A program made the translations under genes and the position numbers. The notes under the pieces are model-generated. The model did no database searches. It saw only the letters and a program-made list of their open reading frames with translations, and was not told the DNA's origin. Shown piece after piece: positions 50,218-57,830 of a stretch of DNA of 64,000 bases. Source of the stretch: Candidatus Eiseniibacteriota bacterium (lineage in GTDB: Bacteria > Eisenbacteria > RBG-16-71-46 > CAVPCR01); the NCBI GenBank assembly GCA_963823555.1, contig CAWGMA010000002.1:192001-256000 (forward strand). Reading direction: 5' to 3'. The stretch's first letter is position 1. Each line of letters starts with the position of its first letter.

Positions 50218-50294
50218 CAGGGTCCGTGTTGGCACCCGCGCCCGGTCGGGTCGTGGCCGGAAACGGATGGTATGCAGGGAGGGGAGGTTGCCGC

Positions 50295-50489
50295 ATGGAG
50301 CAGTTCAAGTTTCCGGAGTGCCTGAAGTGCGCGACCGGGGTGCTGATCCCGCTCTCCGACTACGGTCGCGAGGGAGCACCGATCACCTACAAGGCCTGGG
50401 TTTGCACGAATCCCGACTGTGGGTTCAACGTTCGCATCGACAACGGTGAGATCAGTCTCGGACGCATGATCGGTTCCTCCACGAAGTAG
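50295..50489 (+). CDS. Small (64-aa) zinc-ribbon-like protein
   Basis: CLKC...WVCTNPDC; GGAGG RBS; host-like codon usage. Confidence 0.75.
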   Translation: MEQFKFPECLKCATGVLIPLSDYGREGAPITYKAWVCTNPDCGFNVRIDNGEISLGRMIGSSTK

Positions 50490-51800: not shown

Positions 51801-53767
51801 ACGTGAACGGCCGGGATGCTCGTCTGGATCTCGGCATCGCTCTCCTCATCGCGCTCGCCGCATTCGCGGCTCTGACTCCTCTCGTGCAGCGTGACATCGG
51901 CTGGGTCGACTCGGTCGAGCTGGCGCTCGCCGGCCAGGGGCTCGGCGTTCCCCATCCCACGGGATACCCCCTCTATGCCTTGCTGGCCCGGCTCGCCGCG
52001 GCCGCAGCGGCGAGGGCCGGCTTCGACCCGGCCTTCGGGGTCAACCTGCTGTCGGCCCTGTTCGCGGCGGTCGCGGCCGCGCTCACCTATGGGCTCGGGC
52101 GCCGGCTCGGGTTCAGCGTGGTCGCGGCGGCCGCGGCGGCGCTCCTCCTCGTGGGCGCCCGCGACTTCATCGCGCAAGCCACGGTCGCCGAGGTGTATAC
52201 GCTTCATCTCCTCCTGGTCGTGCTGCTCTTCACGCTCGCACTCGATGCCGCCGGGAGCGGGCGCGCCCTCCTCGGCGCGGCGTTCGTGCTCGGTCTCGGC
52301 CTGGCCCACCATCTCACGATCGTGCTGGCAGTCCCCGCGCTTGCCGTGCTGCTCATCCGCCGCCGCCAGGCGGTGCCACGCCTCGCCCTCGGACTGGCGC
52401 TCGCGCTTCCGCTCACGCTCTATCTCGTCCTCCTGACTCGCTCGGCCCTCGATCCGGCGCTCGACCTGGGCGATCCCGAGACGGTCCCGCGTCTCCTGTC
52501 GCACGTGAGAGGCCGACAGTTCGGTTACCGCCTCCTCACCTCGGAAGCGGCCTACGCCTGGGCGGAAACGGGGCGGTTCTTCCACCTGCTGGTCGCGCAG
52601 TGGTCGCCGGTGGCGATCCCTTGGATCGTGCTCGGGGCGGTGGTGATGGCCACCGGATCGCGACTTCACCGCCGCGTTCTTGCCGCCCTCTTGCTCCTCG
52701 TTGCCGCCGTCGTCGCCCACGCCGTGGCGTATCGCATTCCCGACAAGGAGGCCTACTACCTTCCGGTCTATCTCGTCGCGGCCCTCCTTGCCGGTGCCCT
52801 GGCCCACGTGCTCCTCGTGGCGACGAGCCGGAGTCGTCACGGGCGTGCCGTCCTTGCCTATCTGGTGATCGCTCTGTCGCTGTGGCCGTTCATCGGCCAC
52901 CGGCATGGAGGCGACCGTCACGCCGATCACTCGCTGGCCGATCTCGCGCTGGAAGTGGGACGCCGCACGACAACCGGCAGTCTCATCCTTTCGGATGACA
53001 CCAGTGTCTTCTTCGCTCTGCGCTACTTGCAGGAAACGGGCCGCATGCCTGAGGACCGCACGATCGTTGCGGAGTACTTTCTCCCTCTGCCATGGTACGC
53101 GGCATCCCTCTCTGCGCTGGACCCGGCCCTGCCCGCGGAAGTCGCCGCGCATGCCGCCGATCGCAGCGGGCTGCAAGGCCGCGCGCTCGGTGATCGACTG
53201 GCCCAGGACTCGCGCGAGCTCGCCGCCGGGGTGGTGCGGCGTGCCGTCGGCCAGCGCGACGTGTTCGTCTACTTCCATGACTTTGCCACCGAAGCGACGA
53301 GCTTCGCCGGTCTGGCGCTGGCCGATCGCGGGCTCGTCTATCAGGTGGAGGGGGAAGACCGGGCCGAAAGGAGCCTCCCTGACGCCGAATTCGCCCGCTT
53401 CGCGTCCTACCGCGCCGACCGGCGGCGGACGGCGGAGGAGGGGGCGGTGGCGCGGCGATACGCCGTGGCCGCCAATCGCGCCGGCATCGCCCGGGTGAGC
53501 GCCGGAGATGCCGGGGGTGCGGAGCGAGAGTTCCGGAAGGCGCTCATCCTCGATCCGGACTATGCTCAGGCCTGGTTGAACCTCGGTCTTCTTCGCGCCG
53601 ATTATCTCGAGCGCCCGGCCGAGGCCCGCGCGGCGTGGCAGCGTTTCCTCGAGTGCGCGCCGGATGCGCCGGAGGCCCCTGCGGTGCGTGCGCGTCTCGG
53701 GAATCTCGCCGTGCCCGGCACGACAGGGGCGGGGTCGGGCGAGGGGGAAGACGAAGGGCGCGAGTGA
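51797..53767 (+). CDS. DUF2723/TMEM260-like GT-C membrane glycosyltransferase with C-terminal TPR
   Basis: DS.EL......LGVPHPTGYPLY, A.VAEVY.L, GL.LAHH and YYLP; TPR tail. Confidence 0.85.
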   Translation: MNVNGRDARLDLGIALLIALAAFAALTPLVQRDIGWVDSVELALAGQGLGVPHPTGYPLYALLARLAAAAAARAGFDPAFGVNLLSALFAAVAAALTYGLGRRLGFSVVAAAAAALLLVGARDFIAQATVAEVYTLHLLLVVLLFTLALDAAGSGRALLGAAFVLGLGLAHHLTIVLAVPALAVLLIRRRQAVPRLALGLALALPLTLYLVLLTRSALDPALDLGDPETVPRLLSHVRGRQFGYRLLTSEAAYAWAETGRFFHLLVAQWSPVAIPWIVLGAVVMATGSRLHRRVLAALLLLVAAVVAHAVAYRIPDKEAYYLPVYLVAALLAGALAHVLLVATSRSRHGRAVLAYLVIALSLWPFIGHRHGGDRHADHSLADLALEVGRRTTTGSLILSDDTSVFFALRYLQETGRMPEDRTIVAEYFLPLPWYAASLSALDPALPAEVAAHAADRSGLQGRALGDRLAQDSRELAAGVVRRAVGQRDVFVYFHDFATEATSFAGLALADRGLVYQVEGEDRAERSLPDAEFARFASYRADRRRTAEEGAVARRYAVAANRAGIARVSAGDAGGAEREFRKALILDPDYAQAWLNLGLLRADYLERPAEARAAWQRFLECAPDAPEAPAVRARLGNLAVPGTTGAGSGEGEDEGRE

Positions 53768-53835
53768 GGAAGTGGGATGCAGATGAGCCTGCGTTCGCGG
53801 TGGCGATGTGGGTGAGCCCACCCAGCGACGAGTGC

Positions 53836-53865
53836 TTGAATCCACCTGTATTCCCGCGGTAGAAT
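53836..53865 (+). promoter_or_regulatory. Sigma70-type promoter of the cyclic-nucleotide module
   Basis: TTGAAT-N18-TAGAAT, about 60 bp upstream of ATG 53925. Confidence 0.55.
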
Positions 53866-53924
53866 GAAGATCACGCAGGGCGGGTTTCCCGCCCTTTTCC
53901 CACAGCCGCGCCTGGGTCCAATCC

Positions 53925-55289
53925 ATGCAGGCTCATCTCACCCCAGATACCTCTGCGCTCACCCTCGATGACGGATCCAGGGTCGCCGTCGTGGGTGGCG
54001 GACCTGCGGGTTCGCTCTTCGCCTATTTCCTCCTCACCTTCGCCGAACGCGCTCGCCTCGAGCTCGAAGTCGAGATCTACGAGCCGCGTGATTTCTCGAG
54101 CCCGGCTCCGGCCGGCTGCAACATGTGCGGCGGCATCATCTCCGAATCGCTGGTGCAGATGCTCGCCACCGAGGGGATCGAGCTCCCGGGGAACGTCGTC
54201 CAGCGCGGAATCGACTCCTACGTGTTGCACATGGATGTCGGTACGGTGCGCATCGACACGCCGCTCCATGAGATGCGTATCGGGGCCGTGCATCGCGGGG
54301 CGGGGCCTCGCGACTTGAAGACGCCCAAGTGGGGTAGCTTCGACGGCTATCTCCTGTCCCTGGCGGTCGCGCGCGGCGCGCGCGTCAACCGGGTCAAGGT
54401 CGAGCGTGTCGTGCGGCATGACGGCCGTCCCCGGCTCGAGCTGCGAGGAGGCGAGGTCCGGGACTGCGATCTGGTCGCGATCTGTGCCGGTGTGAACTCC
54501 GGCGCCGGCCTCTGCGAGCGCATCGATACCGGATATCGCGCCCCGCGTACCGGGAAGGCCTATATCCGCGAGTTCTATCTCGGCACCGACGGGGTCACGG
54601 CCGCCCTCGGCTCCTCGATGCATGTCTTTCTGCCCGAGATCCCGGAGATCGAGTTCGCCGCCATCGTGCCCAAGGGCGACTATGCGACGCTCTGCATGCT
54701 CGGCGACAACCTGGACAAGGAGACCGTCCAGCGCTTCATGGATACACCCTGGGTGCGCTCCTGCATGCCCCCGGGTGCCCATGAGACCCCATCATGCCAG
54801 TGCTCGCCGCGGCTGAGTCTGGCCGGTGCGAGGCAGCCGTTTGCCGACCGGGTCATCTTCGTCGGCGACAGCGGAGTGACCCGGCTCTACAAGGATGGTA
54901 TCGGTGCTGCCTATCGCACGGCCAAGGCCGCGGCGAGCACGGCCGTCTTCCAGGGCATCTCGGCCGATGCCTTCCGCCACCACTTCTGGCCCGCATGCCG
55001 CCGCATCGAGCATGATAATTTCCTCGGGCGCATCGTCTTCAGCGTCACCAAGGCTCTGCAGCGGACCGCGATCGGCCGCCGCGCCGTTCTCGAGATGACG
55101 CGGCGGGAGCAGGCCCGGGATGGGGCGCGGCGGCCGATGAGCCAGGTCCTGTGGAACGTCTTCACGGGGAGCGAGCCCTACCGCCAGATCCTCTTGCGTA
55201 CGCTCAACCCGTCGTTCATTGCGCGTCTCGTCGGCCACTTGGTTGCCGCCGTCCGTCCGGCCCGCCCGGAGGCTCGTCCTTCCCGCTGA
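53925..55289 (+). CDS. FAD-dependent oxidoreductase (geranylgeranyl reductase/FixC-like)
   Basis: VAVVGGGPAG, GCNMCGG, FD..L...A...GA and VGDSG.....DGI..A..T. Confidence 0.85.
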   Translation: MQAHLTPDTSALTLDDGSRVAVVGGGPAGSLFAYFLLTFAERARLELEVEIYEPRDFSSPAPAGCNMCGGIISESLVQMLATEGIELPGNVVQRGIDSYVLHMDVGTVRIDTPLHEMRIGAVHRGAGPRDLKTPKWGSFDGYLLSLAVARGARVNRVKVERVVRHDGRPRLELRGGEVRDCDLVAICAGVNSGAGLCERIDTGYRAPRTGKAYIREFYLGTDGVTAALGSSMHVFLPEIPEIEFAAIVPKGDYATLCMLGDNLDKETVQRFMDTPWVRSCMPPGAHETPSCQCSPRLSLAGARQPFADRVIFVGDSGVTRLYKDGIGAAYRTAKAAASTAVFQGISADAFRHHFWPACRRIEHDNFLGRIVFSVTKALQRTAIGRRAVLEMTRREQARDGARRPMSQVLWNVFTGSEPYRQILLRTLNPSFIARLVGHLVAAVRPARPEARPSR

Positions 55290-55299
55290 GGAGAACGTC

Positions 55300-55680
55300 A
55301 TGACCTCATCCGCACTCGGCCGCGATTACCGGGATGGCGAGATCATCGTCCGCCAGGGCGATGAGGGGGAGAGCATGTACGTCATCCAGGAAGGATCGGC
55401 CGAAGTCGTCATCGAGAGAGACGGCAAGGAGATCCTCCTGCGCGAGCTCGGCAAGGGCCAGTTCATCGGAGAGATGGGTATCTTCGGCCGGGACGTGCGC
55501 TCGGCCACCGTCCGCGCCAAGGGCCCCGCGCGCCTTCTCACCGTGGATCGCAAGACCTTCCTCCGGCGCATCCACGAGGATCCCTCGCTGGCCTTCCGCG
55601 TCGTCGAGACCATGTCACAGCGGATCCGCGAGCTGAGTGACGAGGTGGCACGCCTGCGACTCGAGGGTGGGCAGGACTGA
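55300..55680 (+). CDS. Stand-alone cyclic-nucleotide-binding domain protein (no HTH)
   Basis: I.RQGDEG.SMYVI..G and the phosphate-binding cassette FIGEMG......RSATVRA, followed by a C-helix. 126 aa; GAGGAG RBS. Confidence 0.92.
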   Translation: MTSSALGRDYRDGEIIVRQGDEGESMYVIQEGSAEVVIERDGKEILLRELGKGQFIGEMGIFGRDVRSATVRAKGPARLLTVDRKTFLRRIHEDPSLAFRVVETMSQRIRELSDEVARLRLEGGQD

Positions 55681-55683
55681 GGG

Positions 55684-56670
55684 ATGGCCGTGCTCCGTTA
55701 CCGGTCGCCGGTGTCCCCCGGGGCGCGATCGCTCTTGCTCGTAGCCGCGGAGGGTACGCCCCAGGAGCGGCGGTTCGTCTTCTACGAGCGGATCGAGATC
55801 GGGCGGCTGGTCGAAGGACGGCCGGAGGAGGAAGGCAAGCTCCTCATCGGCGATCCCACCGTGTCCGGCCATCACTGCATCATCCTGTGCGATCCGGATG
55901 GTCGCTGTTTCATCCGCGACACCAGCCGTAACGGGACCCGGGTCGATGGCCGGCGGCTCATTCCGAACCGCGAGGTCGAGCTGTTGCCCGGTCAGGCGAT
56001 CGGCGTCGGCGCCGAGGAGACCTTTCGCTTCATCGTGCCCGAGCGTCCCGATGCCGCGGCGACAGCCGAGCCCCGGTTCGGCACGCTGGCTCAGCCCTCG
56101 GTCGGACAGGTGTCGATCCTGGTCGGTGATATCCGGGGGTATACATCGCTGATCGAGCAGGTCGAGTCGTCGGTTCTCCAGGATGCGGTGTCACGGGTCT
56201 TCATGCAGCTCAAGAACGTGGTCCTGGCGCACGCCGGTCAGGTCAAGGAGTATCAGGGTGATTCCTTGATGGCGTTCTGGGAGGCGTTGAAGCAGAGCTC
56301 GCCGGCGGTGCCGGCATGCACGGCGGCTCTCACCCTGCACCGTGCCGCCCAGGAACTGGCCCGGGACCCGGCGATATGGCCGTTTCCCGCTCATCCCCTC
56401 CAGATGGACTGGGCCGTGACCACCGGAGCGGTGACGACCATCGTCCTCGGGGAGGACCGGCCCGAGGAGCTGTCGATGGTGGGCGAGCCCGTGGTTCTCG
56501 CGTACCGTCTCGAGAAGATCGCCGGCGATCGCACCGGCTCGATCCTGGCTTGCGAGAAGACCCGAGCCGCGGCGGAGGAGAGGTTCGTGTTCCAGGATCT
56601 CGGTCAGTTCTCGCTCAACGGGTTCAGTCGCGGCGTGCGGGCCTATGCGTTGCTGGGGGAGCGCTCATGA
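55684..56670 (+). CDS. FHA-domain class III nucleotidyl cyclase
   Basis: FHA motifs IGR, VSGHH and D.SRNGT; cyclase motifs ILVGDIRGYT, KEYQGDSLMAFW and VGEPVVLAYRLE. Confidence 0.9.
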   Translation: MAVLRYRSPVSPGARSLLLVAAEGTPQERRFVFYERIEIGRLVEGRPEEEGKLLIGDPTVSGHHCIILCDPDGRCFIRDTSRNGTRVDGRRLIPNREVELLPGQAIGVGAEETFRFIVPERPDAAATAEPRFGTLAQPSVGQVSILVGDIRGYTSLIEQVESSVLQDAVSRVFMQLKNVVLAHAGQVKEYQGDSLMAFWEALKQSSPAVPACTAALTLHRAAQELARDPAIWPFPAHPLQMDWAVTTGAVTTIVLGEDRPEELSMVGEPVVLAYRLEKIAGDRTGSILACEKTRAAAEERFVFQDLGQFSLNGFSRGVRAYALLGERS

Positions 56671-57431
56671 AGGTGACGGTCGTGGCCTCGTCCCCGGCGC
56701 AGCCTGTGGAGCAGCAGTACCTCACCTCCTTCGTTGTCGACCACCGCCTCGCCGTGGACGCTGGGTCGCTCGCCCTCCACGAGAGCCCCGAGGAGCAAGC
56801 GGCGGTACGGCATGTGCTACTCACCCACTCGCATGCCGATCACATCGGCTCGCTCCCCGTCTTTCTCGAGAACACGAGCTACCGGCGACAGGGGCCGGTG
56901 TCGATCCACGGCTCGCGGGCCACGATCGAGGCGCTTCGCGCCCACATCTTCAACGATCGCATCTGGCCCGATCTATCCCGCCTCAATACCGAGGACCACC
57001 GTCTCATCGAGCTCCGTGTGCTCGAGCCGGAGGAGCCGGTCGAGATCGACGGATTCCGCGTCACCCCGGTCGCGGTGAATCACACGGTGCCCACCTTCGG
57101 CTACATCATCGACAACGGCAGCGAAGCCGCTGTCTTCGGCGGGGATTCCGCGCCCACCGACCGTATCTGGGAGCTGGCCCGGCGCGCGTCCCGCGTCCGC
57201 GCCGCCATGATCGAGTGCACCTTCCCCGCGGCCATGAGTGCTCACGCCCTGCGCACCGGGCATCTCACGCCGCTCGAGCTGGCCGCCGAGATGGAGAAGC
57301 TCCCCTCCGGGACCGCCGTCATCGCCGTGCACATCCGGGCGGCGTTCCATCCGGTCATCCGGGACGAGCTCGAATCGATGCGGCGCCCGGAACTCGAGGT
57401 CGGGCGCGGCGGGGCGACCTACGCGATCTGA
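56667..57431 (+). CDS. Class II (MBL-fold) 3',5'-cyclic-nucleotide phosphodiesterase
   Basis: VDAG, THSHADHI, HIFNDRIWPD, NH.V, GD, IECTFP, GHLTP and a final H. ATGA overlap with the cyclase. Confidence 0.88.
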   Translation: MKVTVVASSPAQPVEQQYLTSFVVDHRLAVDAGSLALHESPEEQAAVRHVLLTHSHADHIGSLPVFLENTSYRRQGPVSIHGSRATIEALRAHIFNDRIWPDLSRLNTEDHRLIELRVLEPEEPVEIDGFRVTPVAVNHTVPTFGYIIDNGSEAAVFGGDSAPTDRIWELARRASRVRAAMIECTFPAAMSAHALRTGHLTPLELAAEMEKLPSGTAVIAVHIRAAFHPVIRDELESMRRPELEVGRGGATYAI

Positions 57432-57446
57432 TATCATCCCGCGACC

Positions 57447-57830
57447 ATGGAGGAGATCACGGCTCCCGCCATCGGGCCGACGATCGGCATCGACCTGGTC
57501 GAGATCGCCCGCGTGCGCCAGGCGCTGGCGCGCCATGGCGACCGATTTCTCGGGCGCCTCTTCACTCCGGACGAGATTGCCTATTGTCTTGCGCGGCATG
57601 ATCCGGCGCCGTCGCTCGCCGCCCGCTTCGCGGCCAAGGAGGCCTGCGCCAAGGCGTTGCCGGTGGGAGCCGCTCCCTCGTGGCGCGAGATCGAGGTCGT
57701 GGTCGGCGATGGGGGCAAACCGGAGCTCCGGCTTGCTCCCCGTCTCGTTGCTCGCCTCGGCGGCCGCCGCGCTTTCGTGAGCCTTAGCCATGCGCGCGAC
57801 CTGGCGATGGCGGCCGTCATCATCACCTGA
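57447..57830 (+). CDS. acpS: Holo-ACP synthase
   Basis: IGIDLVEI.R, FT..E, LAARFAAKEA..KAL, GKP and VSLSH. Confidence 0.95.
   Translation: MEEITAPAIGPTIGIDLVEIARVRQALARHGDRFLGRLFTPDEIAYCLARHDPAPSLAARFAAKEACAKALPVGAAPSWREIEVVVGDGGKPELRLAPRLVARLGGRRAFVSLSHARDLAMAAVIIT

Follow-up and report, generated by a model that had tools for sequence, protein, structure and literature searches.

Relation to described cyclic nucleotide systems

The bacterial receptors for cyclic GMP (cGMP) known to us are few: transcription factors of the CRP type, one GGDEF enzyme and the TIR effectors of anti-phage systems. Here, we describe a four-gene cassette from a Candidatus Eiseniibacteriota bacterium, located in a 64,000-nucleotide stretch of contig CAWGMA010000002.1 (hereafter the window), in which an FAD-binding oxidoreductase is followed by a stand-alone binding protein for cyclic nucleoside monophosphates (cNMPs), a class III cyclase with an FHA domain and a class II phosphodiesterase. 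The cassette is a complete, likely cGMP-type form of a real, conserved and apparently undescribed module in which a flavoenzyme is regulated by a cNMP, and on balance we favor reading it as a local cGMP switch of a four-cysteine flavin enzyme.

Several described systems share parts of this arrangement. XC_0250/XC_0249 of Xanthomonas campestris (PMC3770947) also couples a cGMP-making class III cyclase to enzyme control by a cNMP domain, but the controlled enzyme is a fused GGDEF diguanylate cyclase, whereas the cassette type has a flavoenzyme, a mostly separate receptor, an FHA input and a class II phosphodiesterase. CgrA of Rhodospirillum centenum and Clr of Sinorhizobium (PMC10187061) likewise sense bacterial cGMP through a cNMP domain of the CRP type that has a C-helix. 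These proteins, however, are helix-turn-helix (HTH) transcription factors, while the cassette receptor has no HTH, carries Leu at the place of T127 and has a beta5 Arg of the PKG type. Pycsar (PMC11224242) and Pucsar (bioRxiv 10.64898/2026.08.12.744502) share a class III cyclase with a cognate cNMP-binding effector, and Pucsar makes cGMP, with PucC having Glu at one base-reading place. Their effectors are CNBD-TIR or three-transmembrane (3TM) proteins, in contrast to the flavoenzyme, receptor and phosphodiesterase that neighbor the cyclase in the cassette. The analogy to Pycsar drawn in the initial annotation of this DNA fails on the effector, there being neither TIR nor 3TM, and on context, there being no defence island. 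The words FHA, oxidoreductase, reductase and phosphodiesterase are absent from the main text on Pucsar, whose supplementary Table S1 might include this cyclase clade. A description of an enzyme-receptor-cyclase module was not found in the literature searched (most subscription papers lie outside it), and to that extent the statement that the four-gene architecture is not a recognised system still stands.

An oxidoreductase and a stand-alone receptor form the conserved core

All four genes are open reading frames (ORFs) on the forward strand, as tightly coupled as was first proposed, with spacings of 10 nt and 3 nt followed by an ATGA overlap. They encode the oxidoreductase and putative output enzyme (53925..55289, 454 aa), the cNMP-binding protein (55300..55680, 126 aa), the FHA-cyclase (55684..56670, 328 aa) and the phosphodiesterase-like protein of metallo-beta-lactamase (MBL) fold (56667..57431, 254 aa). 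The identities assigned at the outset hold, since the HTH-less cNMP domain (PF00027), the FHA-cyclase (PF00498, PF00211) and PDEase_II (PF02112) score above Pfam cut-offs, and the oxidoreductase has the FAD fold of the geranylgeranyl reductase (GGR)/FixC clade in a structure model.

Occurrence was counted in the best 80 of 140 genome loci anchored on the oxidoreductase (51-61% identity) and in the best 80 of 215 metagenome loci anchored on the cyclase. The oxidoreductase set bears 15 phylum labels on the 65 loci that are labelled; five 'Eubacteriales' rows are possibly mislabelled, and the three of them that are in the tree group with Aminicenantes. The receptor lies directly behind the oxidoreductase in 72 of the 80 loci (two partial); of the other eight, contig ends interrupt four, one breaks off 423 nt from an end and the remaining three lack the receptor. 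Enzyme and receptor make up one ORF with a short linker in nine loci, a fused state that takes five changes on the tree, and PF00027 is fused in five of the best 120 database matches to the oxidoreductase. This adjacency and fusion lends strong genomic support to the earlier proposal that the receptor may act as a regulatory subunit of the oxidoreductase, and the two very probably work together.

The cyclase is less constant. A class III cyclase falls within the fetched flank in 43 of the 80 oxidoreductase loci, and its build varies among FHA-cyclase (13 loci), FHA-GAF-cyclase, cyclase-STAND-TPR and CHASE2-cyclase. Among the 50 longer loci with counted genomes, 31 have a cyclase neighbor against 1.4 expected, and where the genome has at most four cyclase matches the figure is 24 of 26 loci against 0.2 expected; these loci include kin, which do not count as independent, and also served to train the profile. 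From the side of the cyclase, the receptor is directly upstream in 40 of 80 loci, and the phosphodiesterase follows in 3 of 80. A protein of the SDR-DUF2867 type is found in 13 of the 80 oxidoreductase loci, and a second MBL family in six. From their occurrence across both sets of loci, the oxidoreductase and the stand-alone cNMP receptor are the conserved core, with a swappable cyclase and an optional phosphodiesterase. The neighborhood search proposed with the initial annotation therefore bears out enzyme-receptor adjacency and fusion but not four-gene synteny: all four genes occur in order at one of 80 genome loci (L069), which, with the rarity of the phosphodiesterase behind the cyclase, removes the four-gene architecture as a conserved unit.

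A number of these counts weigh against the cassette as a cGMP switch. No cyclase was found in 37 of the 80 loci, including 17 of the 24 from cyclase-rich genomes (seven have one), and a phosphodiesterase orthologue is present in four. Three loci (L006, L042 and L074) have the enzyme without a receptor despite ample flank, and a subfamily of the flavoenzyme that is fused to an NDH-2-like module is without the receptor domain. Conversely, of the 70 metagenome loci with a Glu-type cyclase (defined below) that are informative, 30 are without this receptor; the other 10 of the 80 are undecidable. Chance clustering of a flavoenzyme gene with an unrelated signalling operon, to which the loci lacking receptor or cyclase might appeal, has nevertheless a negligible probability, as it is contradicted by the 72 adjacencies, the repeated fusions and the excess of cyclase neighbors.

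Cyclase and receptor residues point to cGMP

The cyclase domain scores 33 bits against the PF00211 cut-off of 21.9. All 13 aligned cyclases share D149, D193, R275 and E189, and G40-R41, S61, H64 and N83-G84-T85 of the FHA domain are invariant as well. The transition-state Asn is absent: V271 takes its place in the cassette cyclase, and Val or Thr does so in 14 of 14 family members. Ma1120 is an active cyclase without this Asn, and guanylyl cyclases have Glu at the first base-specifying place and Cys, Ser, Thr, His, Ala or Gly at the second (PMC4215837). The cassette cyclase has the guanylate-type pair, E189 with S264; in alignments, the counterpart of E189 is Glu in the guanylyl cyclase Cya2 (2w01) and Lys in 6fht, an adenylate-cyclase entry. 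Glu also occupies this place in each of the 80 metagenome cyclases, a position that the search patterns had excluded. In PDB comparisons, the cyclase scores E 6e-25 with CyaB against E 3e-7 with 7r65, and PycC models reach at most 33.6 bits.

The receptor consists of PF00027 alone, across residues 8-92; no HTH was found in its 126 residues, and the match to CRP stops at profile position 139 of 214. Its phosphate-binding cassette (PBC) is that of a ligand-binding pocket (G57, E58, R67, S68 and A69) and is at least 90% conserved. Strand beta5 carries L47-R48, with R48 aligned to CRP S62, and L112 stands at the place of CRP T127. In the carboxyl CNB domain of PfPKG, L472 and R473 recognise guanine and T493 contacts N2 (PMC4412288), and the receptor has L47, R48 and S68 at matching distances from its PBC Glu. 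The two share the Leu-Arg of beta5 and the hydroxyl that follows the PBC Arg, although the PKG domain is a eukaryotic kinase regulatory domain that has Thr where the receptor has Ser, and has other capping residues. Among 105 unique receptors, R48 is present beside Glu-type cyclases in 47 of 47 cases and beside K/R/N-type cyclases in none of 24; the figures are one of two with D-type cyclases and 4 of 32 with no adjacent cyclase. The wider family appears, from these residues, to include versions of a cyclic AMP (cAMP) type, in which Lys-type cyclases accompany Ala or Gly at receptor position 48.

Given an active cyclase, the signal here is probably cGMP, a point that the initial annotation does not make. 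The case consists of two separate structural rules in agreement rather than of statistical proof, because the covariation has few independent events. Reckoned on a quick tree, the R48 label needs just four changes over 92 rows, and in a test of independent pairs (58 of the 92 rows kept, D-type and cyclase-less rows excluded) the R48/E189 covariation comes down to two changes and, on starred branches, to a single independent pair (sign test p = 1). Of the same unfavorable tendency are the retention of R48 in the four loci that have no adjacent cyclase, the beta5 Arg in 5 of 10 unrelated cNMP domains near a Glu-type cyclase, and the prospect that an Asn-less cyclase may be weak or inactive. Nor are the residue rules absolute, because the receptor has Ser at the T493 place and PucC reads the base with E118/K195 (bioRxiv 10.64898/2026.08.12.744502).

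These same points feed the alternative that survives best, namely that the circuit is as described but runs on cAMP or a mixture of cAMP and cGMP, or else that a pseudo-enzyme, in the form of the Asn-less cyclase, accompanies a receptor that serves as a structural, ligand-independent subunit. In its favor are the family-wide replacement of Asn by Val or Thr, the CRP-like Arg-Ser retained by the receptor, the equal binding of both substrates by Cya2 (PMC4215837) and a covariation of one or two events. We consider it unlikely, as the four cyclase residues are invariant, Glu is universal in the metagenome set, the PBC is conserved and a phosphodiesterase is encoded alongside.

Other cNMP proteins were seen near cyclases of both types. 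Some receptor-less loci with a Glu-type FHA-cyclase carry a NapC/NirT-like multiheme cytochrome c together with a membrane protein that ends in a cNMP domain, for instance at L103:3565-4922, L104, L115, L140, L152:8608-9893 and L169:1754-3021; the cytochrome family occurs in 10 of 80 loci, and the pair is possibly another cGMP-linked redox module. Sigma54-cNMP-4Fe-4S proteins and globins likewise adjoin Glu-type cyclases. Near the Lys-type version of the module, mostly in Aminicenantes, are a fusion of cNMP domain, acetate kinase and phosphate propanoyltransferase and MscS-cNMP proteins (L008:11574-13895, L024, L051, L052 and L072). At L007 (3954-7568 and 14287-14664), the neighbor of a CHASE2-cyclase with an Asp specifier is a BTAD-cNMP protein of Arg type, and a fragment of a Lys-type cyclase is near a Gly-type enzyme receptor, combinations that fit matched pairs.

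The flavoenzyme

The oxidoreductase falls below every Pfam and NCBIfam cut-off and has sub-threshold FAD matches only; to illustrate, TIGR02032 (geranylgeranyl reductase family) scores 35.9 bits against a cut-off of 158.8. A PDB sequence search returned nothing at E < 0.001, and ESM Atlas gave unnamed FAD-oxidoreductase clusters only. A structure model built from a 71-row alignment (pLDDT 86.6, pTM 0.89) nevertheless has the PHBH/GGR-type FAD fold, its closest structures being the archaeal geranylgeranyl reductases 3oz2 (Z 31.9, TM 0.62) and 3atq (Z 28.5) and FixC 7koe (Z 30.2), at 16-17% identity. Foldseek ranked kynurenine monooxygenase, FixC and GGR together. With the GGR/FixC clade the enzyme shares this fold over 360-372 residues (rmsd 3.2-4.5 A), the GxGxxG motif, the CGG loop and the GD motif. 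It differs in its low identity and sub-threshold TIGR02032 score, in an extra CxxC and CxC, in the motifs FAAIxPKG and RLYKDG, where GGRs have WxFP and PxxGxG, and in having a cNMP subunit. The enzyme is likely a reductase.

All 71 aligned orthologues have C65, C68, C291 and C293, as well as H102. The cysteines lie in the invariant motifs C65-N-x-C68-G-G and C291-x-C293-x-P, and GD-x4-RLxKDG is another invariant motif. Both CxxC and CxC are retained in all 41 longer relatives, down to 30% identity. Of these, 32 have a Pyr_redox_2 module (18 with NDH2_C), two a GltD-like Fe-S flavoprotein, four SDR-DUF2867, one the receptor plus a methyltransferase, one a FecR domain and one a Cys-less paralogue; a cyclase domain was found in none of the 41. 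The NDH-2-like fusions form a distant four-cysteine subfamily (P0130-P0161). Three Anaerolineales loci have, in tandem with the enzyme, a Cys-poor paralogue (25-31% identity), and in P0129 this paralogue and a four-Cys copy form one protein (L013:6429-7679, L053:4921-6201, L057:6650-7915, L092-L094 and P0129), which suggests a possible heterodimer.

Such cysteines also admit an alternative in which the flow is reversed, the flavoprotein being a sensor of redox state, oxygen or metal that the receptor links to the cyclase or to other targets. The CxxC by the flavin loop and the CxC might make up a dithiol or cluster for sensing, Glu-type cyclases adjoin the multiheme cytochrome/membrane cNMP pairs, sigma54-cNMP-4Fe-4S proteins and globins noted above, and no substrate gene is conserved beside the enzyme. 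On the other hand, the enzyme is fused to its receptor or to NAD(P)H-oxidising modules and never, among the 41 longer relatives, to a cyclase; the cyclase already has an FHA input; and the full GGR/FixC fold is kept. We regard a sensor as quite improbable and continue with the flavoprotein as the output of a cGMP switch.

Phosphodiesterase, transcription and genome setting

The phosphodiesterase scores 66 bits against the PF02112 cut-off of 23.7, as expected for class II, and its best PDB match is 4ojv, cyclic-nucleotide phosphodiesterase 1 (E 1.9e-10). It has the residues T53-H54-x-H56-x-D58-H59, H139, D160 and H222, and the HxHxDH motif is invariant in 6 of 6 sequences. It is not of the anti-Pycsar Apyc1 type, with 40.9 bits against a cut-off of 400 for NF041851 and no match to PF23023. 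In a different locus (L148:2824-3636), an Apyc1-like MBL hydrolase (PF23023, 124 bits) lies directly behind a Glu-type FHA-cyclase.

The genes that flank the cassette are unrelated to it, as initially stated, with a TMEM260-like membrane protein upstream and acpS and YjeF/nnr downstream. A promoter of its own, also claimed, is not borne out: the one promoter-like site on the forward strand (53836..53865) is at chance level, with 0.7 +/- 0.8 sites in shuffled sequence. Between this site and the first ATG is a GC-rich hairpin followed by four T (53877..53898, forward strand; hairpin 53877-53895, -15.8 kcal/mol), a possible weak terminator that the terminator scan did not call. Because acpS starts 15 nt past the stop of the phosphodiesterase gene, a separate, self-contained transcription unit is not established. 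One metatranscriptome (share 0.08) contained two contigs of 151 bases, at depth 2, that match the oxidoreductase gene without a difference; it left the other three genes uncovered and is uninformative on co-transcription.

In the genome that carries the cassette (G000, 92.5% complete), the cyclase is the sole PF00211 match, the phosphodiesterase is the only close match to itself and, among four cNMP domains, that of the receptor is the only one with an intact Gly-Glu...Arg phosphate-binding cassette. A CYTH domain was not found, class I and II cyclases not having been searched. The private circuit proposed in the initial annotation is consistent with this genome, where one cyclase faces one intact receptor; across genomes, the cyclase is swappable and the phosphodiesterase optional. 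The genome also encodes 15 Ser/Thr kinases.

A variable-cargo site separates the TMEM260-like gene from acpS (window 53767-57447; L186:1016-3259; L187). The TMEM260-like gene and acpS/nnr are directly adjacent, with no cassette, in a genome of the same family (G002), and in one of the same genus (G001) the site is occupied by an unrelated repeat protein of 747 aa. Counting G000, the oxidoreductase turned up in 10 of 61 genomes of the class; it was not found in the four nearest genomes (81-99% complete). Loci identical to four of those in the class are recorded under the labels Ca. Eisenbacteria or uncultured bacterium. The GC and GC3 of the cassette match those of its flanks.

This patchy spread and variable insertion site could suggest an anti-phage system like Pycsar or Pucsar with an oxidoreductase effector, as could the weak PycC and PycTIR domain matches, the STAND fusions among neighboring cyclases, the use of cGMP as messenger by Pucsar and the monooxygenases carried by rare Pucsar loci (bioRxiv 10.64898/2026.08.12.744502). 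However, the PycTIR profile matches cover only the cNMP domain of the receptor, and there is no TIR or 3TM effector. Among 192 neighbors (two genes per side, one representative per recurring family), four match PADLOC at E <= 1e-30, all through generic domains. Identities of 51-61% across phyla are unlike those of arms-race genes, GC3 matches the flanks, and a co-encoded phosphodiesterase and an FHA input suit homeostatic signalling. A defence role is accordingly very unlikely.

Further genes of this genome deserve mention. Orthologues of two accessory neighbors of the module, the uncharacterised START-like protein F24 and SDR-DUF2867, occur elsewhere in it (L176:7288-8067 and L175:8419-9903, contigs C2 and C3). 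ESM Atlas matches of F24 to START/polyketide-cyclase proteins are under 0.9 and serve as a lead, and F24 was rejected as a core partner, being present in one of 61 class genomes (G000 only) and in 4 of 80 loci. On contig C3 (L175:13171-15936), small genes and a 526-aa protein resemble, by eye, a serine-recombinase mobile element near a ribosomal protein operon. In the window itself, a 65-aa Cys-rich ORF with two CxxC-like motifs and no Pfam match (50292-50489) lies upstream of a HAD hydrolase.

A proposed cGMP switch and its significance

The switch model builds on observed gene anatomy, residues, fold, adjacency and fusions. The FHA domain, with its phospho-Thr-binding residues intact, would bind a phospho-Thr partner, for which the 15 kinases of the genome could be a source, and a cyclase dimer with E189 and S264 would convert GTP to 3',5'-cGMP. 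The receptor, through R48 and S68, would bind cGMP preferentially and, as the short-linker fusions suggest, would contact the enzyme physically, its CRP-like C-helix altering the state of the enzyme and turning it on or off. The reaction of the enzyme is the weakest step. It may be reductive, taking electrons from an NAD(P)H-oxidising partner through a dithiol or a Cys4 metal or Fe-S site beside the FAD. The substrate may be hydrophobic, for example a quinone or an isoprenoid lipid, as guessed from the fold and the START-like neighbors. The class II phosphodiesterase would then reset the signal.

A broader reading is tentative. It would unite these proteins in an undescribed family of GGR/FixC-fold flavoenzymes that spans phyla, has a metal or Fe-S site of four cysteines and is directly controlled by a two-subunit switch like that of PKA and PKG, with matched cAMP and cGMP versions. 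The cGMP version would pair a kinase-gated, Asn-less FHA-guanylate cyclase with a receptor that has the guanine-reading Arg of PKG, and might be the first bacterial cGMP pathway to act straight on redox or membrane-lipid metabolism.

With four small proteins, all soluble, making up the circuit, and with natural fusions and versions of the cAMP type as ready controls, ligand choice, subunit contact and activity are directly testable. If the model is correct, a metabolic flavoenzyme with a separate cNMP subunit would be a new class of cGMP output, spread across many mostly uncultured phyla, and the FHA-gated guanylate cyclases would be a family that ties Ser/Thr kinase signalling to cGMP.

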